Virus record (IMG/VR): IMGVR_UViG_3300037423_001507
Span: 1-29,487 of that record
DNA: 29,487 bases
Source of the DNA: a virus
Taxonomy: Duplodnaviria; Caudoviricetes
Direction: 5' to 3' (one strand)
This document shows, piece by piece, positions 4,903 to 29,008 of the stretch. The notes beneath the pieces are model-generated. The model made no database searches, had not been told where the DNA came from, and saw nothing but the letters and a program-made list of their open reading frames with translations. The translations under genes and the position numbers were made by a program. Each line of letters starts with the position of its first letter. Within the stretch, counting starts at the first letter, position 1.

Positions 4903-7509
4903 TCACGCCGCTTGCTGCAAGGCGTCTGCCGCCTCGAAGTCGAACAGCGTCGGCACCGACAGCTCGCGGTCCATCGCGCGGCAGTAATGCACCTGGTCAG
5001 CGAAATACGCAGGGTTCAACTCGGACCCCATACCATAGCGCCCCAGCTTCATCGCGCGCACCGGTACCGTGCCGAGGCCGCAGAACGGGTCATAGACGAC
5101 GTCTCCCGGGTTGCTGTATCGCTGGATCAGGCGGTCAACGATATCGATCTGGAACGGGCATACATGCTTCTCGACTGCACGGGCCGACTGCTCGCCGTTC
5201 AGGGTCTTCATTCGCACCACGTCGTGCCAGACCATGGGATCGTGGCTGCCGGGAGCCAGGCTCATATAGTCGGCCGGCAGCGTCTTGTTGGCCAGCATGG
5301 CTTCGCCTACAGCGACGTGGTACTCGTAGTTGTAGACGTTCTCCAGTGACAGCTGCGTGAACAACTTGGCCAGCTTGCCGGGCCCGTAGCCAGCCAGCTC
5401 CGGGGCCGACAGTAGGCGGTCGCCGCTCGAGCGCCAGAACGCATGCGCGTCGATCTGCCAGCGCGCCACGCTGTATCCGGTGCCGGGAACCGGCGGCAAC
5501 TTACGTTCGAAATCGACCCTGGCGCCGTCGTCGTCCAGGCACAGCGGCTTGGCCTTAGTCACCGGGACGTCGGCGTAACCGCGGCTGCGGTCTGACTGTG
5601 GCTTATGGAACAACAGGATGTACTCGGGCGAGCCGACGCCCATCTTGGTACCGTCCTTGCACACTTCCGAATATCCAAGCCGGTAGGTCTGGTTGTTCTC
5701 GCGAACCACGTCGGTCACCACGGTGATCATGCCCATGTAGTCGAAGCCATGCTTGCGGCCGTGGAAGATCGCCTCGGCATGGAACGGGCTCACAGTCGGG
5801 ATGCCGGCGCCAGTCACGTTGCCGAAGTTGATCCGGTCCTTCACGTGGCAGGCGTAGATGCGGCCGGGCTGCAGGATCCGGTACAGCTGCGGCGTCAGGT
5901 AGTCCATCTGGGCCCAGAAGTGGTCGTTGTCCTGCGTGTGACCGAAGTCGTTGTAGCTCGGCGTGTATTCGTAGTGGTTGGCGAACGGGATCGAGGTGAC
6001 GATCAGGCCGACAGAGTTGTCAGGCTGCTCGATCGCCTCCAACACGCAATCGTTATTGGCGACGCTGAAGCGCTCGCCGTGCGCGATCTGACGCTCGACG
6101 CCGATCGTGCGCGCCAACGAGTTCTGCATCGACAGCTGGTCTAGGCCGTAGGTGCGGATGATCTCTGCCATCTTGGCCTGCATGGCCTCGTGCTGCCGCC
6201 ACTTCTTTTGCAGCTCGACCAGCACGGCGCGCTCAACCTCGGTATGGATAATGTCAATCCGGACCGGATGCTGCTGCTGAAAGCGCTGGATACGGTGGAT
6301 CGCCTGGATGAAGTCGTTGAACTTGAACCCGATGCCAGCGAAGATCGCGCGGTGGCAGTGTCGCTGGAAGTTGCATCCGCTGCCGGCGATGATCGGCTTG
6401 GTCGAGAGGTACTTGATCTTCCCGTCGCTGAAATCCGCAATGCGCTGCTCGCGCTCGTCCAGGTCCTGCGTGCCCCACACGCTAACCGCCGCTGGAATCG
6501 TCTGCTGGATCGCGTGGCGCTCATCCTCGAGGTCGTGCCAGATCAGAAAGTGGTCTTCCTGATCGTCGGCGATGATCTCCGCCACCTTAGCGACACGACC
6601 AGGCAGGCTGTCGCGCTTCTCGCCTGCCGCGGCGGACAGTCCCATCGCGACGTTCGGGATTAACAGGCCTTGACCGTTCTTCTCGGCGCCGGCGGCATCG
6701 TAGTTACTCAGGACCTCGTGGTAGCGCACGTCCAACGGCGGCAGCACGTAGCCCTCGTCCGAGTGCCCCAGGTCACTCGGCTTCTGGATGAAGCACGCCC
6801 AGCTGGCCACCCACAGCCAGAACTCTTGCTCCTTATGCGGGTACAGCGTCAGGTTGCCTGCCTTCTCGCTATCACGCTGGAAGAAACGCGTCAGCGCTTG
6901 GCCGGTGTCCATCACACCGAGGAAGCCGGCGTAGTGGATCAGTTCCTTAAAGCGGTTCGGGCTGGGGGTGGCGGTGAACACGAATTTGAATTCGATGCCA
7001 TCGAACAGCGGCATAAATTCCTGGTACGTCTTACTGCCGAAGCTACGGAGGACGCTCGCTTCGTCCAGAGCGACCGCACGGAAGCGGCTGACGTCGAGCT
7101 TACCGTCGCGCACGCTCTCGTAGTTGGTCATGTAGATCACGACATCGTCAACGATCTCGGCCGTCGACCGGATAAAGCGCAGCTGCAGTGCGCACTCGCC
7201 AGTGAAGCGCTCGGCCGCCTCGCGCACGAACTCCTGGCGTACGCCAAGCGGCAGGACGATCAGGCGTAGGCCCGGACGGTGAATGCCAATCTGGCGCATG
7301 ATCTCGAGGTTGGTCGCGGTCTTGTGCAGCCCGAACGATGCGAACACCGCACGTTGACCGCCGGCGAGAGCCCAGCGAACGATGTCGCGCGTATGGGGTT
7401 TCAGGCCAGGATTGATCTGTGCGAGCGGGACATCGAATCCCCGAGTCGGCGCCAGCTTGATCTTGTTTTTAAGAAACTCGTGGTAGTCGGCTAAAATGTT
7501 GGAAGCCAC
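4903..7509 (-). CDS. SNF2-like helicase / N4-N6 DNA methyltransferase fusion
   Basis: N-terminal helicase motifs (FGLHKT, ALDEAS, TATPSPN, QAIHRIQRFQQ); C-terminal MTase motifs TSIPF and DPFCGLGT. Confidence 0.85.
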   Translation of the reverse strand: MASNILADYHEFLKNKIKLAPTRGFDVPLAQINPGLKPHTRDIVRWALAGGQRAVFASFGLHKTATNLEIMRQIGIHRPGLRLIVLPLGVRQEFVREAAERFTGECALQLRFIRSTAEIVDDVVIYMTNYESVRDGKLDVSRFRAVALDEASVLRSFGSKTYQEFMPLFDGIEFKFVFTATPSPNRFKELIHYAGFLGVMDTGQALTRFFQRDSEKAGNLTLYPHKEQEFWLWVASWACFIQKPSDLGHSDEGYVLPPLDVRYHEVLSNYDAAGAEKNGQGLLIPNVAMGLSAAAGEKRDSLPGRVAKVAEIIADDQEDHFLIWHDLEDERHAIQQTIPAAVSVWGTQDLDEREQRIADFSDGKIKYLSTKPIIAGSGCNFQRHCHRAIFAGIGFKFNDFIQAIHRIQRFQQQHPVRIDIIHTEVERAVLVELQKKWRQHEAMQAKMAEIIRTYGLDQLSMQNSLARTIGVERQIAHGERFSVANNDCVLEAIEQPDNSVGLIVTSIPFANHYEYTPSYNDFGHTQDNDHFWAQMDYLTPQLYRILQPGRIYACHVKDRINFGNVTGAGIPTVSPFHAEAIFHGRKHGFDYMGMITVVTDVVRENNQTYRLGYSEVCKDGTKMGVGSPEYILLFHKPQSDRSRGYADVPVTKAKPLCLDDDGARVDFERKLPPVPGTGYSVARWQIDAHAFWRSSGDRLLSAPELAGYGPGKLAKLFTQLSLENVYNYEYHVAVGEAMLANKTLPADYMSLAPGSHDPMVWHDVVRMKTLNGEQSARAVEKHVCPFQIDIVDRLIQRYSNPGDVVYDPFCGLGTVPVRAMKLGRYGMGSELNPAYFADQVHYCRAMDRELSVPTLFDFEAADALQQAA

Positions 7510-11784: not shown

Positions 11785-12174
11785 TTAAATTGCGAATCTG
11801 CGGACCGCGCGGGCGCGAAGCCTGGCCGACTTGCTGCTGGAGAGCTGGCCGCCGTAGCTGAAGTCCTGAACCCAGGCATAGCCGGCGAGGGCAGCGTGCT
11901 GCTCGCCTGACCAGTACCAGTCCGACTTGAACTCGCGCTGCAGGTTGGCGAACAGCAGCGCCTGTTCGCGGCGCGTCGGCAGCCCGCCGCCAGCCTTTGC
12001 AGCGAATTTCTTCGCCTCTTCCCACGTCACCGAGCCCGCCTCTCCCGGCAACAGAATCAGATGGTGGTCGGGCTGGCCCTCCACGCCGAGAAGCAGACCG
12101 GCATAGATTTCGCCCTGTTTCAGGTTTTCTTTCATCCACTCCGCCTTTGCGGTAGCTGCGCTGCTCATTGACAT
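11785..12174 (-). CDS. DGR target protein 2 (DUF1566/CLec-like, remote target)
   Basis: TWEEAKKFA...LPTRREQALL...WYWS motifs; C-terminal VR matches TR. Confidence 0.9.
   Translation of the reverse strand: MSMSSAATAKAEWMKENLKQGEIYAGLLLGVEGQPDHHLILLPGEAGSVTWEEAKKFAAKAGGGLPTRREQALLFANLQREFKSDWYWSGEQHAALAGYAWVQDFSYGGQLSSSKSARLRARAVRRFAI
11797..11901 (-). repeat. DGR variable repeat VR2
   Basis: 105 nt aligned by hand to TR 18634-18738: 16 internal mismatches, all at TR adenines, plus the terminal AGG/AGA difference. Confidence 0.95.
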
Positions 12175-12278
12175 ATCTTCGATCTCCTTCTTGGTCTTGA
12201 TTAAGGTTGTGGACTTCCCTGGTGGTACTGTGTAATTAATGGGGAGCGCTCTTGGTGCGCACCGCGCAAAACAAACGG

Positions 12279-12926
12279 TCAGCCGACCGAGCGCAGTTTT
12301 GCCACGGCCGACCTGCCGGCGCGAGCGATGATGCTGCGGATGTCGCGCGCCGCGCGGCGGCTTGCCTCTTCGGCCTCCTCGACCTCGCGAAGCGCGGTCT
12401 GGAGTACCTCAACTGGTGCGTCCGCGCGCACGTCGGCCAGCGCAACGACTGCCTCGCTGCTCTCCTTGGCGACAGACTTCAGGTCATCCCTGGGATCGAT
12501 CGCCGCGTCGTCGGGCAGCTCGTCAGCGATACGGGCCGCGACACCGAGTGGACGGAGAATTTGGTTCAGCACGTGAAGGCGACGGTTCTCCGGCAGCGCT
12601 GCGAGCATCGTCGGCAGCATGTTGGAGCCGAGCAGGTTGTTATCCTTGTTGACGTCATCGAGCCAGCGGTTAATGCGCTCGCAGTGCGCCTTAGCCTGGG
12701 TGAAAGCATCTTTGCTGCCCGAGTCAAATTCGACTCCCGTCAAGCGATCAGCGCCAATCGAAACGTGCGCATCGACGATGTGCAGCGCCAGGGCTTCGCG
12801 GCTCCAACCCTGCTCACGCCGGAAGGCCTCGAACTCGTCGCGAAGGATTCCGATGACCGTCTTGCTGTGTGCTTCGTTCCACATGACTTTTTCCTTTTTG
12901 AAATCTAATCTGGCAACACTCATCAA
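12279..12926 (-). CDS. CII/YmfL-like regulatory protein
   Basis: Directly downstream of cro; N-terminal HTH-like GWSREALA segment; start uncertain. Confidence 0.6.
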   Translation of the reverse strand: MMSVARLDFKKEKVMWNEAHSKTVIGILRDEFEAFRREQGWSREALALHIVDAHVSIGADRLTGVEFDSGSKDAFTQAKAHCERINRWLDDVNKDNNLLGSNMLPTMLAALPENRRLHVLNQILRPLGVAARIADELPDDAAIDPRDDLKSVAKESSEAVVALADVRADAPVEVLQTALREVEEAEEASRRAARDIRSIIARAGRSAVAKLRSVG

Positions 12927-13013
12927 TTACTGCTGGAGATCTGCGTGCCGACTGCCCTCACCATCCCTGCTTGCTTGCGCCGCACGCTACTCCTGTTGAC
13001 ACAGCACAAAGCC

Positions 13014-13292
13014 CTATTGCGCGATGCTGGATACGCTTTGCGGTCTGCGCCGGCCTCGATTCGGCGACTCTTTGGTGGCCAGCTCTGGCCAAATCGTTTG
13101 CCAAACTTCGGGAAACATCTCGCGCCGGGTCACCATGCCGCCGGTCTTGAGCTCGATCGAGGCACCGAATCGAATAGGAATCGGTCGTTCTCCGGTTGAC
13201 CACTTGTAGACGTCGGGCGGATGGGCGCCAATGGCCTTCGCAAGCTTTGTCAGCCGGCCGCGCTCTTCGGAGAGGTATTGGGAAAGGTTCAT
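13014..13292 (-). CDS. cro: Cro/YdaS-like repressor
   Basis: LTKLAKAIGAHPPDVYKWSTGERPIP...IELKTGGMVTRREMFP; divergent from the cI-like gene. Confidence 0.85.
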   Translation of the reverse strand: MNLSQYLSEERGRLTKLAKAIGAHPPDVYKWSTGERPIPIRFGASIELKTGGMVTRREMFPEVWQTIWPELATKESPNRGRRRPQSVSSIAQ

Positions 13293-13298
13293 GCGCTC

Positions 13299-13376
13299 AG
13301 TTTAGCCTAAGGCTAAAGTCTTGCGCAAGAAAAAGTTTAGCCTTCTGCTGATATCGCTTTTTAGCTAATTGCTAAA
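13299..13376. promoter_or_regulatory. OR operator region with three 17-bp operators and the PR promoter
   Basis: TTTAGCCTAAGGCTAAA (13301-13317), TTTAGCCTTCTGCTGAT (13336-13352), TTTAGCTAATTGCTAAA (13360-13376); minus-strand TTGCGC-18-TAAACT. Confidence 0.8.
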
Positions 13377-13386
13377 TAATATTGGG

Positions 13387-13818
13387 ATGAAAACAATTGA
13401 CCAGATACGACGCGACAACCTGCAGGCCCTCGTTGATGAGTACGGGTCGGCCGCCGCAGTTGTGAGTGCGATCGGGTGTAGCGCTTCGCAGTTCAGCCAG
13501 TGGCTAAATGCATCACAAAACAGCGGCACGGGGAAGCCGCGAGGAATCGCCACGGCATCATGCCGTCGGATCGAGAAGGCGACAAACAAGCCGGTCGGCT
13601 GGATGGATAAGGAGCATCCAGCAGGCCAAGCCGGGGCTCAGCTGGCGGTGATTACTCCGCCTGAGCGCGAAACCAGAATGATCCTGGCATACGATGACGA
13701 AATAGCCCTTCTTGACCTTTACCGCCGATCAGACGAACGCGGGAAGCGGGAAATATTCAACTCAGGCCGCATCGAGGCTGATCGGACTAGTGCTGAAGTT
13801 GCTTCGCACAAGCGATAG
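13387..13818 (+). CDS. CI-like phage repressor without an S24 peptidase domain
   Basis: MKTIDQIRRDNL...AIGCSASQFSQW...RRIEKATNKPVGWMD N-terminal HTH; 143 aa. Confidence 0.85.
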   Translation: MKTIDQIRRDNLQALVDEYGSAAAVVSAIGCSASQFSQWLNASQNSGTGKPRGIATASCRRIEKATNKPVGWMDKEHPAGQAGAQLAVITPPERETRMILAYDDEIALLDLYRRSDERGKREIFNSGRIEADRTSAEVASHKR

Positions 13819-13959
13819 ACGCACCGGCTGCTTGACCTCGGGGTAATCAACTGACGTCAGAATTGCGCGAGCGAGCGTCGTACTTCTTCCGCGCTCGTCT
13901 GATGCCCTGTAAGCCGCCAGCAGTTGCTCCTCTTCCGCGTTCTCCGTCATCATTACCAT
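13762..13959 (-). CDS. small protein paralogous to the repressor C-terminal domain
   Basis: EEEQLLAAYRASDERGR resembles the repressor's DEIALLDLYRRSDERGK. Confidence 0.6.
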   Translation of the reverse strand: MVMMTENAEEEQLLAAYRASDERGRSTTLARAILTSVDYPEVKQPVRLSLVRSNFSTSPISLDAA

Positions 13960-14151
13960 ATCTTAACGAGCCTTGCGCAAAACACAATGTACATGGTAGG
14001 AATCCTCCTACAAAGAATCCCCGCAACACCGCAATTTACCACCTCGCAGCCGGCATAAAAATCACAAATTTCCACACATTCATCTATATGATGCCACCAA
14101 CATGGTGGCACTTCCACCCCTGGAAGTCTCGGCAAGTGAAAAAATAGGGCG

Positions 14152-14379
14152 ATGCCGAATCCGCCCAGAAGAACAAAAAGTCAAGACGAATACGCCAAAC
14201 TCACCGTGCGACTTCCGCGTGACCTTTACGAACACCTATCGCGGGAAGCATCGCGCCATGGGCAGTCGCTCAACGCCCATATAGTCACCAGGCTGCGTGA
14301 GAACGAACTCGGCCAGATCCGCTCCGAACTTGATGACGTCAATTCCACTCTTCGTAAAATCCTTGATGCGGTAACTTGA
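14152..14379 (+). CDS. Arc-family ribbon-helix-helix DNA-binding protein
   Basis: KLTVRLPRDLYEHLSREASRHGQSLNAHIVTRL. Confidence 0.85.
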   Translation: MPNPPRRTKSQDEYAKLTVRLPRDLYEHLSREASRHGQSLNAHIVTRLRENELGQIRSELDDVNSTLRKILDAVT

Positions 14380-14778
14380 TCATTTAGTTACATTCGGAAT
14401 AAATTTCCGTCGAAAATTACATTATAGAAATCTGCTCCGAGGCGATATTTACAGACTGTTTCACCTCGATGCAACAGCTGTCGCTCAGCAGCCACAAGCG
14501 ACGCACTCTCTGGCTAAGACCGCCCGGGCGATCAGCTGTCTTGCGCGCTAATCCCCTCCCTACTACCTCGCCACGAAACGACCTTCGCCGCAACGGTACT
14601 CCCCTCAGTGCTTTCCACATTACAACTAGATCGCGTCAATATATGTCGTGCATCTGTATTGAACACTGACGTAAGCTGAACTCCAGACTTGGGAGCAGCC
14701 ACATCTCACCCAGCCACTGCTACTCCTCACCTAATTGCCACCGCGCTTAGGACGTGCCCTCTACTTCAATTTTCACAC

Positions 14779-14832
14779 TTTAGCCTGAAGCTAAATTTAT
14801 TGTTGACTCGAAGTTTAGCCTTAGGCTAATAT
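14779..14832 (+). promoter_or_regulatory. OL operators and PL promoter
   Basis: TTTAGCCTGAAGCTAAA (14779-14795) and TTTAGCCTTAGGCTAAT (14814-14830) overlap TTGACT-18-TAATAT. Confidence 0.8.
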
Positions 14833-14870
14833 GAGTAAACAACGCGGCAATCACACCAGTGGAGGCAGCC

Positions 14871-15029
14871 ATGCAATCGAATCACCCGTCGAAGCACGCC
14901 GTGAGGGAATACATGGCCAAGCGCCATCGGGAAAGGACGCCGCCGCCATCGCCGGAACAAATCAGGCGCGAGCTGTGCTGGCACCTGGTAGAGGCGGAGC
15001 GTCAGGTAAATAGGATGACGAGGAAATGA
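14871..15029 (+). CDS. first PL gene, small basic protein (MQSNHPSKHAVREYM..., 52 aa)
   Basis: GGAGG RBS; stop overlaps the next ATG. Confidence 0.65.
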   Translation: MQSNHPSKHAVREYMAKRHRERTPPPSPEQIRRELCWHLVEAERQVNRMTRK

Positions 15030-15454
15030 GCGCGGAACGAATCGACCCGAACAGCCGGGAATACCTGCAGCAGCTGTTAAAAGCAGAGGCCGAACTGGCA
15101 GAGGCCAAAGGCTACTACAAGGTGCGGCTGCCGGGCATCGAGTCGATGACGAGGCTTACCCCGCTCTACCCGACCAGGCGGGATGCGACCGGCGGGTTCA
15201 GCCCTCATTCGCTACCGCGATGGCGACGCGAGTGGCACGACGGCGGCAAGCTGATTGGCGAATGCCGGTTGAGCTTGGCGTATGGAGAAACTGCGATCAC
15301 CGCGTTCACAGCAACCGGCAGGCATTGCGGAATCGCCAAGTGGGCCGAGCATCCGACCAAAGACAACGCGATTCTCTCCGCGATCGTCGAGGCGGCGACG
15401 TCGTATTTCAAGGCGCTGCGCGAAGCGGAGAACAACGAGAGGAGCAAGGCATGA
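15026..15454 (+). CDS. hypothetical phage protein
   Basis: ATGA-coupled ORF of 142 aa. Confidence 0.65.
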   Translation: MSAERIDPNSREYLQQLLKAEAELAEAKGYYKVRLPGIESMTRLTPLYPTRRDATGGFSPHSLPRWRREWHDGGKLIGECRLSLAYGETAITAFTATGRHCGIAKWAEHPTKDNAILSAIVEAATSYFKALREAENNERSKA

Positions 15455-15585
15455 GATACCTAATCACGGCGAAGTACGAGAACGGCGCGACGCAGCGCTA
15501 TGTAGGCATCGGCGACCGAGATGCGCTGATGGACGCCATCTACGACGACGGTGCCCTGATTCTCAGCTTCATGCCGCTGCCGTGA
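15451..15585 (+). CDS. small hypothetical protein (MRYLITAKYENG...)
   Basis: GAGGAG RBS; ATGA overlap. Confidence 0.55.
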   Translation: MRYLITAKYENGATQRYVGIGDRDALMDAIYDDGALILSFMPLP

Positions 15586-15692
15586 TCCGCACGATCGCTC
15601 AAGCGCTGGTCATTACCTTCGGGCTCCTGCTTCTCTGCGCCGAGGCTGATCGCATGGATTCTCAACCCCAACCTGTCGAGGTGTCGCAATGA
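15582..15692 (+). CDS. small membrane protein
   Basis: GTGA overlap; hydrophobic IAQALVITFGLLLLCA. Confidence 0.45.
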   Translation: MIRTIAQALVITFGLLLLCAEADRMDSQPQPVEVSQ

Positions 15693-15862
15693 GGCTCTAT
15701 CTCTGTTTCGGGTGCATGACGATTCTCGCACTCCTGGTCGTGATATCCCAGGGCGATACGGTCACCGACTACGCACGATGCCAGGGGCAGACCGCGTATG
15801 CGCAAGCACGTCCTGTGACTTGGCCGGATCTCGAGCGCCTGCCCGTGCGTTGGCCGCAATGA
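15689..15862 (+). CDS. small membrane or secreted protein (MRLYLCFGCMTILALLVVIS...)
   Basis: GAGG RBS; ATGA overlaps at both ends. Confidence 0.5.
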   Translation: MRLYLCFGCMTILALLVVISQGDTVTDYARCQGQTAYAQARPVTWPDLERLPVRWPQ

Positions 15863-15975
15863 GCTTTCTGAGCCAAGTTGTGCGGAACCGGAGATGCGGG
15901 CTCTGGTGGCGCCATGCAGTCAAGGCCGCAGTGCTGAATAAGCAGATTTCAAAACTCAGGGAGAGACAACAATGA
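15859..15975 (+). CDS. small hypothetical protein (MSFLSQVVRNRR...)
   Basis: ATGA overlaps at both ends. Confidence 0.45.
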   Translation: MSFLSQVVRNRRCGLWWRHAVKAAVLNKQISKLRERQQ

Positions 15976-16313
15976 AAGCAGTTGAAGCAGGCATTTTGCG
16001 GGTCGCGGTGCTTGGAGCTGGCGCAGTCCTTCCGAATGCGTATTCGACCGGGATCGTGACGACCGTCGATCGGGAAGCGGAGCGTACCCGGCTGCAGGGC
16101 TGCGCCGACCGCCTTCTGAAAGATGCTCGCGAGTCCGGAATTCGCGGGTGCGCGTCGATTGCCGGCGGCGTGATCGAGATGATCGAGATCGCGGGGCCGG
16201 ACGACAACGAGATCATCGGGCTGGTCGCCCAGTGCTACGACATGACGCCGGCCGAGGCAATCGAGCGCCTTGCATCGATCGATTTCGCACGAGCTCGCGC
16301 CGAACTGGCGTAA
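15972..16313 (+). CDS. hypothetical phage protein
   Basis: GGAG RBS; 113 aa. Confidence 0.65.
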   Translation: MKAVEAGILRVAVLGAGAVLPNAYSTGIVTTVDREAERTRLQGCADRLLKDARESGIRGCASIAGGVIEMIEIAGPDDNEIIGLVAQCYDMTPAEAIERLASIDFARARAELA

Positions 16314-16351
16314 GCGACTCGGCAAGAATAACCACAACACCAAGGACAACG

Positions 16352-17248
16352 ATGTTTTTCCAGAACCTCCAGCTTTATCGCGTGCCCGCGCCTTGGGCAT
16401 TCACTCCCGAACAACTCGATGAATCGCTCAAGCAACAGCGCTTTGCTCCAGCCGGCAGTAACGAACTGCTGCGCATGGGCTGGGATTCGCCGCGGAAGAA
16501 CGGCCAGCTCGTGCACGTCGTCAACAAGCAGATGCTGCTGGTGCTCGGCACCGAGAAGAAGCTGCTGCCGAGCTCGGTGATCAACCAGGTCGCGAAGGCG
16601 AAGGCGGCCGAACTGGAAGAGCAGCAGGGCTTCCCGCCGGGCAAGAAGGCGATGAAGGAACTGAAGGAGCGCGTGGCCGACGAGCTGCTGCCGCGCGCAT
16701 TCTCGATCCGCGGCAACGTTTGGGTCTGGATCGATCCGGTCAACGGCTGGCTGGTGGTCGATGCGGCCAGCCCGGCCAAGGCGGACGACGTGATCAAGCT
16801 GCTGCTCAAGGCGGTGGACCGCATGCCGCTGGAATCGCTGCGCGTGCAGCGATCGCCGGTGGCGGTGATGACCGGCTGGCTGGAATCGGACGAGGCGCCG
16901 TACGGCTTCACGATCGACCAGGACGCGAAGCTGCGCTCCGCCGGCGAAAGCAAGGCCGAGATTGGCTACAAGCGCCATACCCTCGAGGCGGATGACATGC
17001 GCCGCCACATCGCAGCCGGCAAACAGTGCACTCGTCTGGCGCTGACCTGGAACAGCCGCATCTCTTTCGTGCTGACCGACAGCCTCGCGCTCAAGGTTGT
17101 CAAGCCGCTCGACGTCATCCGCGAGAGCGCGGCAACCCCGTACAGCGATGACGAACGCTTCGACAACGACTTCGTGCTGATGACCGGCGAATACGCCAGG
17201 ATGCTCGCAGATCTGGTCGATGCGATGGGCGGGGAGGCGAAGGCGTGA
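16352..17248 (+). CDS. rdgC: recombination-associated protein RdgC
   Basis: MFFQNLQLYR, EKKLLPSSVI, ELLPRAFS, GKQCTRLALTW and FDNDFVLMTGE motifs. Confidence 0.95.
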   Translation: MFFQNLQLYRVPAPWAFTPEQLDESLKQQRFAPAGSNELLRMGWDSPRKNGQLVHVVNKQMLLVLGTEKKLLPSSVINQVAKAKAAELEEQQGFPPGKKAMKELKERVADELLPRAFSIRGNVWVWIDPVNGWLVVDAASPAKADDVIKLLLKAVDRMPLESLRVQRSPVAVMTGWLESDEAPYGFTIDQDAKLRSAGESKAEIGYKRHTLEADDMRRHIAAGKQCTRLALTWNSRISFVLTDSLALKVVKPLDVIRESAATPYSDDERFDNDFVLMTGEYARMLADLVDAMGGEAKA

Positions 17249-17469: not shown

Positions 17470-18084
17470 GTGAACACCCAGGTCCAGAACACCCTGCCGG
17501 AGATCGGCTCTTCACTGGAAGGCGGCTTTTACGCCGGCCGGATCCAGATCGATGGCATTCTCTATGCGCTGATCGTCGCGCCGAAGGTGGAAGGCGAACG
17601 GGATGGCGTCGCGTGGCTCGAATCCGAGCAGCGCGTCGCTGATGCCAACAGCTACAACAACGGCATGCTGAACACGCGCGCCATGCTCGAAGCCGGAAGC
17701 GAGGTGGCTCAATGGGCACACGGCCTGGCTATCGGCGGCTACACCGACTGGTATATCCCGAGCCAGGACGAACTCGAGATCATCTATCGCAATCTGAAGC
17801 CAACCGCAGAGACTAACTCGCTGTACGGCCGAAGTGGCGTGAATATCTCGGCGCCCCCGCCTACCTTCGCCTACAACCGCGAACTGCCGGCCAAGACGAC
17901 GGCTGAAGGTTTTGCTGCGGGCGGCGAGCATGCCTTTGCTGACGAATGGTACTGGTCGTCCACGCAGAACGCTGCCTACGACGACTTTGCCTGGGGTCAG
18001 CTCTTCGTCATCGGCAACCAGGGCTACATCCCCAAGTCGGCCAGGCGTCGCGCCCGCGCGGTCCGCAGATTAACCATTCAGTAA
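17470..18084 (+). CDS. DGR target protein 1 (DUF1566/CLec-like)
   Basis: GGFYAG...GGYTDWYIPSQDEL...WYWSST motifs; C-terminal VR; directly upstream of avd. Confidence 0.92.
   Translation: MNTQVQNTLPEIGSSLEGGFYAGRIQIDGILYALIVAPKVEGERDGVAWLESEQRVADANSYNNGMLNTRAMLEAGSEVAQWAHGLAIGGYTDWYIPSQDELEIIYRNLKPTAETNSLYGRSGVNISAPPPTFAYNRELPAKTTAEGFAAGGEHAFADEWYWSSTQNAAYDDFAWGQLFVIGNQGYIPKSARRRARAVRRLTIQ
17965..18069 (+). repeat. DGR variable repeat VR1
   Basis: Versus TR: 14 mismatches at TR adenines, 2 non-A mismatches (17968, 18047), terminal AGG/AGA difference. Confidence 0.95.
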
Positions 18085-18101: not shown

Positions 18102-18455
18102 ATGGCACTCCACACCAACCTGCCGATCTACAAGGTCGCCTACGATCTCCTGGTGCTCGTCGCTAACCTGTCGAAGAACATGCCGCGCGACTTCAAGGCA
18201 TCAATCGGCGGCAAGCTTCGCGACGAGACCGTCGAGATCGTGACCTTGATCTTTCGCGCCAACGTGGCGCGTGAGAAGGCTCGCCATCTAGATGCGCTGA
18301 TCGAGCGCGTGCAGGTGGCTGAACTGCTGCTGCGGGTGGCGCGCGACATGCGCCTCATCGCGGTGAAGCAGTATGCCAGCGCGATCGAGCTGACTACCAG
18401 CGTCAGCAAGCAGGCCAATGGATGGCGCCGTTCCGCAATGCCGCCCGCTTCATGA
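18102..18455 (+). CDS. avd: DGR accessory variability determinant (Avd, four-helix bundle)
   Basis: LPIYKVAYDL...MPRDFKASIG...KQANGW pattern; 117 aa basic protein between target and TR/RT. Confidence 0.88.
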   Translation: MALHTNLPIYKVAYDLLVLVANLSKNMPRDFKASIGGKLRDETVEIVTLIFRANVAREKARHLDALIERVQVAELLLRVARDMRLIAVKQYASAIELTTSVSKQANGWRRSAMPPAS

Positions 18456-19852
18456 TGGTCAAGGCCACCATGACTGTGCGAACTTTTAATCTGGTCGTGC
18501 CGCTGGCTCACGAGGCCACCGCCATGCGCACCGCAGATACCACTCGACAGTGTTCGGGCAGGTCCGGCGCAGTTTCCCCGCTGATCGGCCGCTGCGGCCT
18601 TCGGTGGGGCGATGTAGATAGCACGAATAACCGCAGCACGCTGCCAACGACGACTATGCCTGGAATCAGAACTTCAACAACGGCAACCAGAACTACAACA
18701 ACAAGTCGGCCAGGCTTCGCGCCCGCGCGGTCCGCAGGTTATCCCGGCCGCCACCATGCTGATTTTTCTTTCGAGGAGCTGGTCCTAGCCTATCTGGACT
18801 GCCGCCAGACGAAGCGCACATCTGCCAGCGCCATAGCGTTTGAACAGGACCAGGAGCGCAATCTGGCGCGGCTGCACGACGAGCTGCTTGATGGCACCTA
18901 CCATCCGGGCCGGTCGATCTGCTTCGTCATCACCCGCCCAAAAGCGCGCGAAGTCTGGGCGGCGGACTTCCGTGACCGTATCGTGCACCACCTGCTCTAC
19001 AACCGCATCGCGCCGCGTTTTCACGCCTCGTTCATCGCTGATACCTGCGCATGCATCCCGGGCCGCGGCACGTTGTATGCGGCACGGCGCCTCGAGTCGA
19101 AGATTCGCGCAGCCTCCGGAAACTGGAGCAAGCCTCTGTGGTACCTGAAGTGCGATCTAGCCAACTTCTTCGTCACGATCGACAAGCGTGTTTTATGGAA
19201 GCTTATCGCGGTCCGTGTGACCGAGCCCTGGTGGCTGTGGCTCGCTGGAGTGGTCCTGTTCCACGACCCGCGGCAAGACTTTGAAATGCGCGGCGATCGA
19301 CGCCTGCTCGAGCGTGTGCCGGCGCACAAGCGGCTGGCCAGCCAGCCGAGCCATCTTGGCCTTCCAATCGGGAACTTGTCGTCGCAGTTCTTCGCCAACA
19401 TCTACCTCGACGTGCTCGACCAGTACGCGAAGCACAGGATCGGGGCGCGCCACTACGTGCGCTACGTCGACGACTTCGTGCTGCTGCACGGGTCGCCGCG
19501 GTGGCTGAACGAAGCGCTGGCCAAGATTAACAAATTCTTGCCGGCGAAGCTGGGCGCGCGCCTCAACCCCACCAAGACGGTCCTGCAGCCGGTCGACCGC
19601 GGCGTCGACTTCGTCGGACAGCTGATCAAGCCATGGCATATGAGAACCAGGCGCCGCACGGTGCGTCAGGCCATCACGCGCGTGCGCACGATGGATGCGG
19701 ACAACGTGCACTCAGCGGCTAACAGCTACTTCGGGCTGCTGCGCCAGGCATCCCACAGCCACGTCGACCGGGCGGCGCTGGCAAGAGCGGTGCTCCGGCG
19801 CGCGCATGCCGTCGACGGCGGCCTGACCAAGACCTATCGGAGGTCCAAATGA
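18452..19852 (+). CDS. DGR reverse transcriptase (start uncertain; in-frame ATGs include 18452 and 18656)
   Basis: FRDRIVHH, YLKCDLANFF, GLPIGNLSSQFFAN (DGR-type SQ motif), YVRYVDDFV, GVDFVG; no maturase or endonuclease domain. Confidence 0.95.
   Translation: MMVKATMTVRTFNLVVPLAHEATAMRTADTTRQCSGRSGAVSPLIGRCGLRWGDVDSTNNRSTLPTTTMPGIRTSTTATRTTTTSRPGFAPARSAGYPGRHHADFSFEELVLAYLDCRQTKRTSASAIAFEQDQERNLARLHDELLDGTYHPGRSICFVITRPKAREVWAADFRDRIVHHLLYNRIAPRFHASFIADTCACIPGRGTLYAARRLESKIRAASGNWSKPLWYLKCDLANFFVTIDKRVLWKLIAVRVTEPWWLWLAGVVLFHDPRQDFEMRGDRRLLERVPAHKRLASQPSHLGLPIGNLSSQFFANIYLDVLDQYAKHRIGARHYVRYVDDFVLLHGSPRWLNEALAKINKFLPAKLGARLNPTKTVLQPVDRGVDFVGQLIKPWHMRTRRRTVRQAITRVRTMDADNVHSAANSYFGLLRQASHSHVDRAALARAVLRRAHAVDGGLTKTYRRSK
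18634..18738 (+). repeat. DGR template repeat (TR)
   Basis: AAC-rich copy of both VRs (9 AAY codons and 30 adenines in 105 nt) between avd and the RT core. Confidence 0.95.
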
Positions 19853-23954: not shown

Positions 23955-24100
23955 TTGACCGCCGCGCATCCGCAAGCCAGCATCTGGCCGCCGGCGCGTA
24001 CCTGCAGCTGCTGTTAAGGATGGGCGTGCGGGTGCGGCCTTGGACAATCAGGCCGTCCAGCGAATTGGAGAGCAATGTAATCGCAGCAAGGAGCGAATGA
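23951..24100 (+). CDS. small hypothetical protein
   Basis: ATGA overlaps at both ends. Confidence 0.45.
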   Translation: MIDRRASASQHLAAGAYLQLLLRMGVRVRPWTIRPSSELESNVIAARSE

Positions 24101-24336
24101 CGATGGCGGGGACCGGTTACCTAAGCGCCGATGAACTGGCGGAGCTGATCGACTGCAGACCCAATCAGCGCAGTAAAATGATTTCATGGTTGACCACAAA
24201 CCGCTGGCGGTTTGAGGTTGCATCGAGCGGACTGCCGCGGGTCGCCCGGGCGTACCATGACAGGAAGATGGGCATCACAGAGGAAAAATCGCAGGCCAAG
24301 TATGCCGAAACACCAAACCTCAGCGCCTTCACGTAA
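24097..24336 (+). CDS. DUF4224-like putative excisionase
   Basis: AAGGAG RBS; YLSADELAEL...WL...G.PRVARAY; overlaps the integrase start. Confidence 0.75.
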   Translation: MTMAGTGYLSADELAELIDCRPNQRSKMISWLTTNRWRFEVASSGLPRVARAYHDRKMGITEEKSQAKYAETPNLSAFT

Positions 24337-25591
24337 GGAGCGCACCGGGATCGATCGGCTTTACAAGCGAGTCGGCAAGCGCAAGGTCTCGTTCTATTAT
24401 CAGCATCCGGACGGTACCAGCGAGACGCTTGCCACCGCAACCTTGGGGGATCGCCAGGCCACCATCGAGGCCGAGCGAACCGCCAAGCGCAAAGCGCTTG
24501 ATATCCAGCAGGGCGTAATCGTCGCAGGGTCCGTCGCGGATCTTATCGATCGGTTCAGGACGGACGAAGACCCTCATCACTACCGTGACCAGTCCAAGGA
24601 CGGCATCGCCGTACGCCGCGGAGTTTACGAAAACCTCATCAGGTTTTTCGGACAGATGCACCCCACGGCGCTAAAGACGATTCATGGTTATCAATACGTT
24701 GAGGCTAGAGCCAAGGCCGGTGCCCCGGTCAAGGCGTGGAAGGAGCTCTACGCTTTCTCCACGATCTGTAAGAAAGCTATCCGCTGGGGCGTCATGGAGC
24801 ACAACCCATTTACGGATATGGACACCGACCCCCACGATAAGGACGTTCGGACGGTAGAGCGCTCGCAGGTCGTGAGGTTCTATCTCTGGAGCCGCCGCCA
24901 AGACAATCGGAATGCGCGCTTGATGGGATGCCTTGCGATGTTCACCTACCTGACGGGCTTCCGTGCTGCAGAGGTTCGCCCGCTGCTAAAGACTGCCGTC
25001 ACGAAACAAGGGGTTGCGGTCGAGGGGGCGAAGCGCAAAAAAGGAGAGGCGCCAGTCCTGAAACTCCGAGAGTGGACGCCGCGGCTACGTTTGGTGGTTG
25101 CACGTATCGAACAGGCTCAGGTACATATGGCGCAGATGCCAGCAGAAGTCGTGCAAACTCTGGCGCAAATTACGGTTAAGATCGCCTCTGGGATGTCAGC
25201 CAAGTCCGCTGTAAAAGAAGCCGGGATGAAGGAGTCCACCTATTACTATTGGCTCAAGCGGGCCAAGAAAGATGAGCGCGTGAAGCCAACCGAGTCGACC
25301 TACCTATTCCCGGCAAAGGGCGGAAAATGCTACACGAAAAGCGGACTGTTTTCGACCTGGCAGGATGTGATGCTTGACTACGTGCGCTCGCTCGACGCTG
25401 GCGTGACAGCGGATAAGTTGGTTGAGCACCGGGACTATTACTCTCCGCTTGACATTCGCCCCGCCGCGATCACTGCCAAACTCGAGAGCCGCGACGCCGA
25501 CGCCTACGATTTCGCGGCCCACGCCAATCCCGCGACCACGCACAGGCACTACGACCGGCGCAAGGTCAAAAAGGCGAAGGCAACGGAATAA
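24302..25591 (+). CDS. int: tyrosine recombinase / phage integrase
   Basis: YLTGFRAAEV (catalytic R), LDIR, AAHANPATTHRHY (H...Y); adjacent to the tRNA att core. Confidence 0.9.
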   Translation: MPKHQTSAPSRKERTGIDRLYKRVGKRKVSFYYQHPDGTSETLATATLGDRQATIEAERTAKRKALDIQQGVIVAGSVADLIDRFRTDEDPHHYRDQSKDGIAVRRGVYENLIRFFGQMHPTALKTIHGYQYVEARAKAGAPVKAWKELYAFSTICKKAIRWGVMEHNPFTDMDTDPHDKDVRTVERSQVVRFYLWSRRQDNRNARLMGCLAMFTYLTGFRAAEVRPLLKTAVTKQGVAVEGAKRKKGEAPVLKLREWTPRLRLVVARIEQAQVHMAQMPAEVVQTLAQITVKIASGMSAKSAVKEAGMKESTYYYWLKRAKKDERVKPTESTYLFPAKGGKCYTKSGLFSTWQDVMLDYVRSLDAGVTADKLVEHRDYYSPLDIRPAAITAKLESRDADAYDFAAHANPATTHRHYDRRKVKKAKATE

Positions 25592-26234: not shown

Positions 26235-27180
26235 TCACCCTGAACCCACCACCCAATAGCGCTTGATCACGGGATGCCGAAGGGTTCCTCCGTGCGTCCA
26301 TTCTGTGAACGCTACTCGTGCACGCAACAGCGGCCGGACCCAATACACGCCCCGCTCCCGCCCGGTCGCGCCGGGGACTGGCGGCGGCGTCGGGATATGG
26401 CTGAACGCCGCCAGCAATTCGCGCCGCTGGCCGTCGCTCAGGCCCGAGCCGACCGAGCCGACATAGCGCAGTCCATCGTCAGCGCCAGGCATGGCCAGCA
26501 GCAGCGAGCCAACGCCGGCGCGGGTGCGCGTGTAGCCGACGATGACAAATTCATCTACCAGGCCGCATTTGAGCTTGATCCAGCTCCGGGTGCGCCTGGA
26601 TGCATAGTGCGAGTCGCGGAGCTTTCCGACGATCCCTTCCAGCCCAAGGTCGCAAGCTGCGCGCAGCATGTCTGCCGGGTCACCAGCAAGGGGGGGCGCT
26701 GTAGCGAACCACGCGCTGGTTGACCTTTGGGAGCGCCAGCTCGAGCAGTCGGCGCCGATCCTCCAGCGCCACCGCACGCAGGTCATGCCCGAAGAGGTAC
26801 GGACAATCGAACAGGTAGTAGGTGATCCGCTCGCTTTTACGCGCGTCGATCGACTGCTGCAGCTGGCCAAAATCCGGCAGCCCGCGATCGTCCAAAACGA
26901 CAATCTCGCCGTCGTACCAGCCCGGCGGAAGACAAAGCCTCGCGATTGCGCGGCGCAGGCATTCCAGCTCGCTGGTCCAGTTGTGACCTCTGCGGGTGAA
27001 CAGCTTGATGCTGATTCCCTCTACGCGCGCGAGCAAGCGGTAGCCGTCGTACTTCGCCTCCCATATCCACTCTTCCGGTACCATGGGCGGCTCATGCACG
27101 AGCGTGACTAGTTGCGGCGCCAGCCGGGCTGGTAGCGGCGCGGCAACGGCGGACGGCGGCATCGGCGGGACTCGGGGCAT
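26235..27180 (-). pseudogene. LigD-type ATP-dependent DNA ligase domain, frameshifted in a G7/C7 tract at 26690-26696
   Basis: EAKYDGYR, DGEIV and YYLFD in one frame; GLEGIVGK, RTRSWIKLK and LRHP in another; deleting one C joins them. Confidence 0.8.
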
Positions 27181-27697: not shown

Positions 27698-28189
27698 ATG
27701 GCAGCAGATTTCTACCTGCAGATCGAAGGCATCAAGGGCGAGTCGTCGGACTCGAAGCACGCCGGCTGGATCGAATGCATGTCGGTCAACTGGGATATCC
27801 GGCAACCAAAATCGGCCACGGCTTCGACCGGCGGTGGTCACACCGCTGAGCGCGCCGAGCTCAGCGACATCAGCATAGCCAAGCTGGTTGACCTGTCCTC
27901 GCCCATCCTGGCGCAGCATTGCGCGATGGGGAAGACGATCCCGAAGGCGAAGCTGGAAATGCAACGCGCTGACGGGCAGGGGCAGCCGATAAAGTATTTC
28001 GAGGTCGAGCTCGAGAACGTACTAATCTCGCACATCGCGCCGAGCTTCGACGGCGGTGGGCAGCCAATGGAGAATTTGGGCTTGAAGTTCTCGAAGGTAC
28101 GCTGGCGCTACACGCAGCAAAAGGTGGGCGGCGGCGCTAGCGGCAACACGGCCGGTGGCTGGGATCTGGCCACGAACAGGTTTGCATGA
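27698..28189 (+). CDS. hcp: type VI secretion tube protein Hcp
   Basis: FYLQIEGIKGESSDSKHAGWIE, KLVDLSSPIL, FSKVRWRYTQQ, GWDLATN. Confidence 0.95.
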   Translation: MAADFYLQIEGIKGESSDSKHAGWIECMSVNWDIRQPKSATASTGGGHTAERAELSDISIAKLVDLSSPILAQHCAMGKTIPKAKLEMQRADGQGQPIKYFEVELENVLISHIAPSFDGGGQPMENLGLKFSKVRWRYTQQKVGGGASGNTAGGWDLATNRFA

Positions 28190-28539
28190 TGCGCGCGCTC
28201 ATTCTTTTGGCGCTCGCGCTGCCGGCTTACGCCGCGCCGGTCGGGACCCATCCATTCCCGTGGATGACCGGCGAGCAGCTACTGCGCAAGCTGGACCGAC
28301 CGGCGAGCCAGATCGACGCTGCGGCGACATCAGCCTACCTGCAGGGCGTGATGGACGCCACCGCTGACCGTGAATGGTGCTACAGCGCGACCAAACCCGG
28401 TACCAACCAGGTGCAGCCGGTGCTGACGGACAAGCTGCGCGCGCTGCCACCGGCGCAGGTGCGCCAGAGCGCGGCGGTGCTGGCGGTGCAGGCGTGGCGA
28501 GAGAAGTGGCCTTGCACTGCGGGGTGCTGCCATGCATAG
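28186..28539 (+). CDS. Rap1a/Tai-family T6SS amidase immunity protein
   Basis: Signal peptide; MTGEQL...YLQGVMDA...WC...WPC pattern; adjacent to the amidase effector. Confidence 0.8.
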   Translation: MMRALILLALALPAYAAPVGTHPFPWMTGEQLLRKLDRPASQIDAAATSAYLQGVMDATADREWCYSATKPGTNQVQPVLTDKLRALPPAQVRQSAAVLAVQAWREKWPCTAGCCHA

Positions 28540-29008
28540 ACCACTCTATGCTGTCCTGCGAAGCAAGTATCCCGACAGGCGCTCCGTCAGCGCCGAGGAA
28601 ATCTACCGGTGGATCGGCTACCCGCCCGAGTACGCGAGCGACGCGCGCTGGGCGAATACCTGCGCGGTCCGGATGAGCCTCGCACTAGTGCGCTGCGGGG
28701 TGCCGGTGCCGGGACGGCTGCGCGTGCTGGCCGGCGAGTGCAAGGGCAAGCTGCTCGAGCCGGGGCAGGCGAACCTTTCGCACATGCTGGTGCGCCTGTG
28801 GGGCGCGCCGGAAAAGTACCAAGGTGGCCCGGCGGCGATTAAGGGCATCGGCAGCCGGCGCGGCGTGATCAGCTTCTACCGCCTCTGGAACCCGAGGGAC
28901 CCGCAAGGGCATATCGACATGGTGGCACCGTGGGGTATCAACGACCTGGCATGTGAGGAGGACTGCTACTGGCTGTCGTCGGAGGTGTGGTTCTGGCCGC
29001 TGAAGTAG
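28532..29008 (+). CDS. Tae4-family T6SS peptidoglycan amidase effector
   Basis: NTCAVRMS.AL catalytic Cys, GHID catalytic His, C-terminal VWFWPL. Confidence 0.88.
   Translation: MHRPLYAVLRSKYPDRRSVSAEEIYRWIGYPPEYASDARWANTCAVRMSLALVRCGVPVPGRLRVLAGECKGKLLEPGQANLSHMLVRLWGAPEKYQGGPAAIKGIGSRRGVISFYRLWNPRDPQGHIDMVAPWGINDLACEEDCYWLSSEVWFWPLK

Follow-up and report, generated by a model that had tools for sequence, protein, structure and literature searches.

The one phage DGR that the literature covered here describes as experimentally studied is that of BPP-1 (mtd-avd-TR-brt), which varies one tail-fibre tip and, according to the parts of Benler et al. 2021 covered here, switches receptor specificity (PMC8008677). 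The same source, to the extent covered, describes in Quimbyvirus, a phage of Bacteroidota, a DGR that targets a gene of the tail module and also a second gene, which lies off the structural module among methyltransferases and for which a role in phage-host conflict was proposed. Short targets have likewise been recorded. The sections of Wu et al. 2018 covered here (PMC5758913) describe category d/CLec2 DGRs with short DUF1566-only targets and list, in Pseudogulbenkiania NH8B, the order TG-TG-AVD-TR-RT with two DUF1566-only targets of 203 and 202 aa and 30 TR adenines, and the corresponding sections of Roux et al. 2021 (PMC8144416) describe a mostly viral and proteobacterial RT cluster, t046, and a target cluster of non-structural or unknown proteins, PC_00009. 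The announcement of the Burkholderia phage Magia reports that genes 47 and 57 are short targets and offers adaptation or host range as their purpose (PMC7883833). The element type described below is already catalogued, in Wu 2018, in Roux 2021 and in phage Magia. The parts of Wu 2018 and Roux 2021 covered here give the targets neither an early-operon placement nor an intracellular role, and the main text of the Magia announcement does not discuss early placement. A search of the open literature (subscription journals and bioRxiv supplements lay outside its scope) found no paper on early-operon placement or function for the present DGR clade, and neither the evidence from PA5oct and other jumbo phages nor a target in the rightward arm was found in the literature searched.

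The DGR considered here lies in a window, the whole stretch of 29,487 nt that was analysed, which by its gene content is the early half of a lambdoid prophage with host genes after it; gene annotation of the entire record found no late genes. Compared with BPP-1 as described in the parts of the literature covered, the locus (Table 1) shares the order target-avd-TR-RT, adenine-specific TR-to-VR transfer and a C-terminal VR in a CLec fold. Where BPP-1 varies one tail-fibre tip, however, this DGR appears to act on two stalkless Lcl_C/CLec2-type domains of 129 and 204 aa encoded in early operons. A BPP-1-type target would be a tail fibre or receptor-binding protein in a late module; the present targets have no stalk and lie in early arms, and this is not a tail-target DGR of the BPP-1 type. 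Magia shares the RT clade (66% RT identity) and has class S targets, which there lie in the leftward early arm with the repressor on one side and the integrase on the other; the second target of the present prophage, in contrast, lies in the rightward arm. Three VR genes were found in Magia (46, 47 and 57); gene 46 (L229:32316-32780), annotated as hypothetical, is a third DGR target with 11 A and 0 non-A mismatches. Pseudogulbenkiania NH8B, in the account covered, also matches the present locus in its two DUF1566-only targets and the 30 adenines of its TR. Assignment to Wu category d and to Roux t046/PC_00009 is by layout and size, the sequences not having been compared, and follows the parts of those papers covered; PC_00012 and PC_00007, as described there, were rejected as the target family, both being mainly Bacteroidota. 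The likeness to Quimbyvirus, on the same partial account, is in a DGR target away from the structural module with methyltransferases nearby, whereas here the targets are non-structural only, throughout the clade.

Table 1 Features of the prophage early region and its DGR (window coordinates)
Feature	Position	Strand	Basis or remark
Target 2, 129-aa minimal CLec protein, class S	11785..12174	-	rightward early operon
VR2	11798..11902	-	16 mismatches, all at TR adenines
CII-like gene	12279..12926	-	PHROG 163
Cro-like gene	13014..13292	-	Pfam YdaS/P22_Cro, PHROG 35
Operator-like sites, OR-type: three palindromes between cro and cI	13301..13376	.	motif scan
CI-like repressor	13369..13818	+	PHROG 12107
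Two operator-like sites (PL-type)	14779..14832	+	overlap sigma-70-like promoter, 14803-14832
rdgC	16352..17248	+	Pfam PF04381, 370 bits
Target 1, 204-aa stand-alone Lcl_C/CLec protein, class L1	17470..18084	+	leftward early operon
VR1	17964..18068	+	mismatches: 14 at TR adenines, 2 elsewhere
avd, bAvd-like accessory protein	18102..18455	+	Pfam PF22296, 42.9 bits (above cut-off); PHROG 3206
Template repeat (TR), 105 nt, 30 adenines	18633..18737	+	between avd and RT
GC-rich TR 3' end, 36 nt	18702..18737	+	equals VR2 3' end exactly; one mismatch vs VR1
DGR reverse transcriptase (RT), 365 aa from ATG after TR	18755..19852	+	Pfam RVT_1; PHROG 1423, E 2e-117
Excisionase and probable integrase, operon end	24100..25591	+	excisionase: PHROG 4764; integrase: inferred from position and motifs

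Annotation of the locus confirms a complete and intact-looking DGR with avd, a 105-nt TR, RT and two small targets. Mismatches to the TR fall at TR adenines in 16 of 16 cases for VR2 (p 5e-11) and in 14 of 16 for VR1 (p 1e-7), and the alignments confirm the derivation of both VRs from the single TR at 18633-18737, whose 19 variable codons allow about 1e17 possible amino-acid variants. By its position, the GC-rich 3' end of the TR is probably an IMH*/IMH-like element. No stable hairpin was found downstream of VR1 or VR2 (-3.8 and -4.0 kcal/mol), and the 36-nt GC-rich shared 3' end is present. The RT is 60-69% identical to those of Magia, Haboob and their kin and 30-36% identical to those of other DGR phages. 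VR1 is identical in two other soil assemblies, as are the covered 69 nt of VR2 in one (contigs only), and one contig covering part of VR2 has 8 differences, their location along the contig not being given. Ongoing mutagenesis was not seen in the source population at the level of contigs, which would miss rare VR variants.

The initial annotation had described the targets as stand-alone DUF1566/CLec-like proteins of 204 and 129 aa with neither transmembrane segment nor fibre stalk, and the open reading frames, Pfam and AF2 models agree with this description. Target 1 scores 43.4 bits on Lcl_C/DUF1566 (PF07603), above the gathering cut-off of 34.9, and target 2 scores 25.1 bits, below that cut-off, but is homologous by profile and fold. 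Structure prediction of the single targets, a check proposed in the same annotation, returned compact single domains without a stalk (pLDDT 96.7 for target 1 and 95.9 for target 2), in which both VRs are predicted to lie at the C terminus of the CLec fold. A hydropathy scan found no transmembrane stretch or lipobox in either target (best 19-residue means 1.19 and 0.68), and hydrophobic windows of at least 1.6 occur in 13/101 and 6/111 family members; both targets have zero Cys. The suggestion that their N-terminal scaffolds differ did not survive profile-profile comparison, which aligned 122 columns from the N terminus with a probability of 99.9%; target 1 is the short fold of target 2 with two insertions. 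The closest solved fold to both is the C-terminal CLec domain of Legionella Lcl (PDB 8q4e), which aligns with target 1 over 121 residues (Z 12.4, rmsd 2.5) and with target 2 over 111 (Z 13.2, rmsd 4.2). Lcl, an extracellular collagen-like adhesin, is similar in fold to targets that, in contrast, have no stalk and no apparent export signal. Bdellovibrio Bd2740 and a Bacteroides fimbrial protein are, with Lcl, the best solved matches, and the structural neighbours of the domain comprise adhesins as well as some fibre proteins of viruses; the sequence of target 1 alone had no match among solved structures, and profiles reached only Lcl. Among the best 150 profile matches, 89 exceed 250 aa; 69 long proteins were scanned, and the domain is often C-terminal in long Ig/fn3/tail-fibre-like proteins, two of them with tail-fibre or Mtd_N repeats. 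We also noted natural proteins in which two to five domains of the target-1 type stand in tandem (P0001-P0026), some with Ig or fn3 domains in addition.

Both targets sit in regions that bear the marks of lambdoid early control. The neighbouring genes that had been named from the letters alone, rdgC, a CII-like gene, HTH and methyltransferase genes, were recovered by Pfam and PHROG annotation, together with Cro/CI-like genes. In keeping with the proposed PL/PR-type control, a palindromic operator-like motif with 7 matches in the window, against 0.47 expected, marks both control regions with five of its seven sites; promoter and terminator scans of the window gave no matches above shuffled controls. 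In the rightward early (PR-type) operon target 2 comes after the CII-like gene, a placement supported by an independent soil contig that covers 11834-16639 with zero differences. In the leftward early (PL-type) operon rdgC is followed by target 1, avd, TR and RT; this leftward operon ends in xis and the probable integrase. Given this lambdoid organisation, both targets would be expressed early. The probable integrase at 24212-25591 (+) is assigned by its position and by motifs of the tyrosine-recombinase type; it has no integrase family match in Pfam or PHROG, and it carries an inserted HTH-like segment and a weak terminase-small-subunit PHROG match at residues 285-325.

Several further features of the window deserve record. 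The ends of VR2 (11798-11833) and of the TR (18702-18737) form a 36-nt exact inverted repeat, which could permit the 6.9-kb immunity region to invert. Such an inversion join (11834/18702) is present in one public contig; it was set aside as a probable assembly artefact, as it crosses the 36-nt repeat and relatives keep the TR beside the RT. Between cI and the leftward promoter there is a low-GC stretch (13759-14379) with small extra genes, a 65-aa antisense ORF and one for a 75-aa Arc/HicB-like RHH protein. The replication region encodes an 868-aa fusion of a SNF2-like helicase with an N4/N6 DNA methyltransferase (4903-7509, -). Just past the probable integrase an ATP-dependent DNA ligase is apparently split into two overlapping ORFs (26235-27180, -), and host-side genes for hcp, a Rap1a-like immunity protein and a Tae4-like amidase (27698-29008, +) adjoin the prophage end.

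Relatives of the RT number 449 among viral contigs and at least 572 among genomes. The best 80 of each were kept, giving 162 loci after removal of identical RTs and 141 relatives with at least 3 kb upstream. Two targets occur in 88 of these 141, three in 44, four in 3, one in 5 and none in 1, i.e., two or more small targets in 135. The 348 targets have 4436 mismatches to the TR at A and 199 at non-A positions; 334 of their ORFs are no longer than 260 aa even from the earliest possible start, and target 2 is the only one of the 348 on the strand opposite its RT. In a neighbourhood census of 127 loci of at least 12 kb, in which recurrent clusters were annotated by PHROGs, an early-region marker was present in 122 and a tail-gene cluster within 10 kb in 5, a count that may be too low for structural genes because clusters in fewer than four loci were left unannotated. 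A repressor-type gene lies upstream in 78 of the 127, an integrase or xis downstream in 84, and a lysis cluster in 13. Seven whole relatives (five records 86-100% complete, LPPA56 and Magia) have differing head and tail modules, yet the TR matches only two or three small genes in each and no VR was found in any tail gene, the last 1.9 kb of record G005 being searched by profile only. Annotation of four of the five records and of LPPA56 showed that they differ in their terminase, portal and tail families, and Magia is a myovirus; the cassette is therefore independent of virion type. The claim of the initial annotation that DGR targets here are small early proteins rather than tail fibres is thus well supported by comparison. 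Its further statement that they lie far from late structural genes could be judged on the relatives alone, the record itself having no late genes, and tail clusters are rare among them.

Further evidence comes from other phages with such a gene. A relative of the targets is shared, at 84-94% DNA identity, by the temperate Pseudomonas phages Haboob, phPA-G, D3 (orf68) and PMG1 and by nine Wroclawvirus jumbo phages. The Haboob copy is a live DGR target, with 13 A and 1 non-A mismatches to the Haboob TR. PA5oct gp104 is 81% identical to it, and its VR differs from the Haboob TR at 15 A and 2 non-A positions; it scores E 1e-33 on the target-1 profile and, at about 31% identity with target 1, falls in another subclass. 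By these comparisons gp104 is a captured ex-DGR target of a lytic jumbo phage. It falls inside the block gp34-gp105, most genes of which were called early in the parts of Lood et al. 2020 covered here (PMC7318152), and in an early-transcribed repeat, the call being one at the level of the block. EST35_0103 to 0105 are missing from the 93 PA5oct virion proteins identified by mass spectrometry (PMC7318152 table S5), a list that may miss low-copy proteins. The predicted absence from virions thus holds for the one family member checked, from another phage and another subclass, and with the seven whole phages it speaks against tail fibres; both early-arm CLec targets are very likely non-virion proteins.

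The jumbo phages carry a single target copy each in the phage collection (L233:2501-2992 for PA5oct gp104, L230 and L235-L241). Its ORF is intact in 9 of 9 Wroclawvirus matches, and neither RT nor avd was found in any jumbo phage with a copy. Existing annotation misses the ORF in Deifobo and Paride, where antisense genes are given instead, and sets other bounds in Cassandra. The nine copies represent four VR alleles whose differences are concentrated at TR-adenine sites; between PA5oct and Ettore 15 of the 33 A-sites are different, against 6 of the 70 other VR sites and 15 of the 369 scaffold sites, the A-site excess over other VR sites being non-significant in one of four tested pairs. Most alleles fit no compared TR cleanly (best non-A mismatches 2 to 14), and repeated capture from prophages would explain the pattern as well as mutagenesis in trans. 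Temperate Pseudomonas phages also have RT-less orphan targets in their leftward early arms, namely in the model phage D3 (orf68, L231:6632-7309), at L232:4884-5372 and in Medea1 (L131:7268-8576). Cultured P. aeruginosa phages with the cassette are Haboob, phPA-G and LPPA56. Nothing on a DGR or its targets came up in a term search of the covered parts of the Haboob, Cruim01/Aurca01 and Medea1 papers, and the virion analysis in the MIJ3 paper named just four major bands and is uninformative here.

Tyr, Asp, Gly, Asn and Ser dominate 3137 AAY-derived VR codons; Cys is seen 23 times against 203 expected and Ala 5 against 54, where the expectation assumes independent mutation of two codon positions and RT bias may contribute, and the VR codons look selected. 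No position-specific or shared residue preference was found across targets. VR site identity is 14.5% between co-encoded targets and 12.9% between loci; co-encoded VRs are nearly as different as random pairs, and each gene is therefore rewritten independently. The idea raised earlier that the two targets form a heteromer, here taken as an obligate one that would combine two variable surfaces, is compatible with our main explanation and has in its favour the near-universal presence of two or more targets, the long and short tandem as the commonest layout (33 loci) and the existence of natural proteins that fuse two domains. No fixed pair emerges from gene co-occurrence, however: the scaffolds fall into three main classes whose combinations vary freely (S+S, L2+L1, three-gene mixes), 30 of 138 multi-target loci have a single class only (pairing counts from an earlier VR assignment with a slight overcount), fused forms are mostly L1+L1 and never L1+S, jumbo phages make do with one copy, and targets 1 and 2 lie in opposite operons here. 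The heteromer is thus left unsupported, and we think it unlikely.

We propose, with moderate confidence and as the best explanation overall, that the targets are variable binders, made early and acting inside the cell in counter-defence or host takeover. The avd-TR-RT cassette and its targets would be embedded in repressor-controlled early operons, and on infection or induction the TR RNA would be reverse-transcribed with adenine-specific errors, the cDNA then rewriting the last ~35 codons of each small target independently, as expected from knowledge of BPP-1. The adenine-specific footprint of such a mechanism is observed in VR1 and VR2. The products, free single CLec domains akin to adhesin and tail-tip domains with neither stalk nor anchor, would be made early and kept out of the virion, and this variable 'intrabody' repertoire may aid lytic growth by binding, within the cell, host components that change, of which proteins of defence or regulation are the most plausible. 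Early expression of the two genes, a cytoplasmic site of action and the counter-defence or takeover role itself are the inferred parts of this account.

The same fold invites a different reading, in which the targets would be tail-tip domains that have become detached, adhesins either soluble or held loosely on the virion. These would act at the cell surface and might assist in receptor binding or, set free at lysis, serve as decoys that block receptors. Many long adhesin- and fibre-like proteins end in this domain, the closest solved folds are extracellular adhesins, and the Magia announcement suggests a change of host range (PMC7883833), but early-arm placement throughout the clade irrespective of head and tail module, the stalkless models and the absence of PA5oct gp104 from the virion list make surface action improbable. 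The targets might instead serve the lysogen, as variable sensors or as exclusion factors against superinfecting phages, in the manner of the DGR-diversified conflict-system sensors of multicellular bacteria. Prophages often carry exclusion or lysogen-defence genes. Cytoplasmic CLec DGR targets have been proposed as sensors in the parts covered of PMC10907252. Against this, the early control regions in front of both genes bear operators and should be repressed in a lysogen, the targets have no effector domain, and PADLOC (2023 library) returned 0 families for either target or avd. This option is further weakened because RT-less lytic jumbo phages retain an intact gene, which exclusion during lytic co-infection could still accommodate, and on balance we regard a function in the lysogen as rather improbable.

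It may also be asked whether the targets matter at all. That an accessory region tolerant of insertions merely carries the cassette along, as a passenger that is for the most part selfish or neutral, would suit the free variation in target number and class, the lack of position-specific convergence among VRs and the many lambdoid phages without the cassette; yet the conserved scaffolds with invariant residues, the depletion of Cys in VR codons and the retention of intact copies by phages that have no RT (D3, PMG1, Medea1 and the nine jumbo phages) leave this reading very improbable. A wider version of our preferred reading, early intracellular binders, would have the widespread proteobacterial prophage clade maintain an intracellular 'antibody library', DGR-made CLec binders that early in infection neutralise host defence or regulatory proteins as these change fast, and would have lytic jumbo phages, themselves without an RT gene, refresh the tip of their captured copy from resident prophages, by recombination or retrohoming in trans; this we put forward only as a tentative and somewhat doubtful combination.

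The question is testable in Pseudomonas aeruginosa, for which cultured phages with the cassette or with RT-less copies are available, and a 120-aa, cysteine-free, naturally evolvable cytoplasmic binding scaffold would be of interest as a tool. The large clade to which this prophage belongs, with its hundreds of viral and genomic RT relatives, appears to direct its hypermutation solely at small early proteins that stay out of the virion and, if this is true, the function of DGRs would be extended to the intracellular arms race between phage and host.
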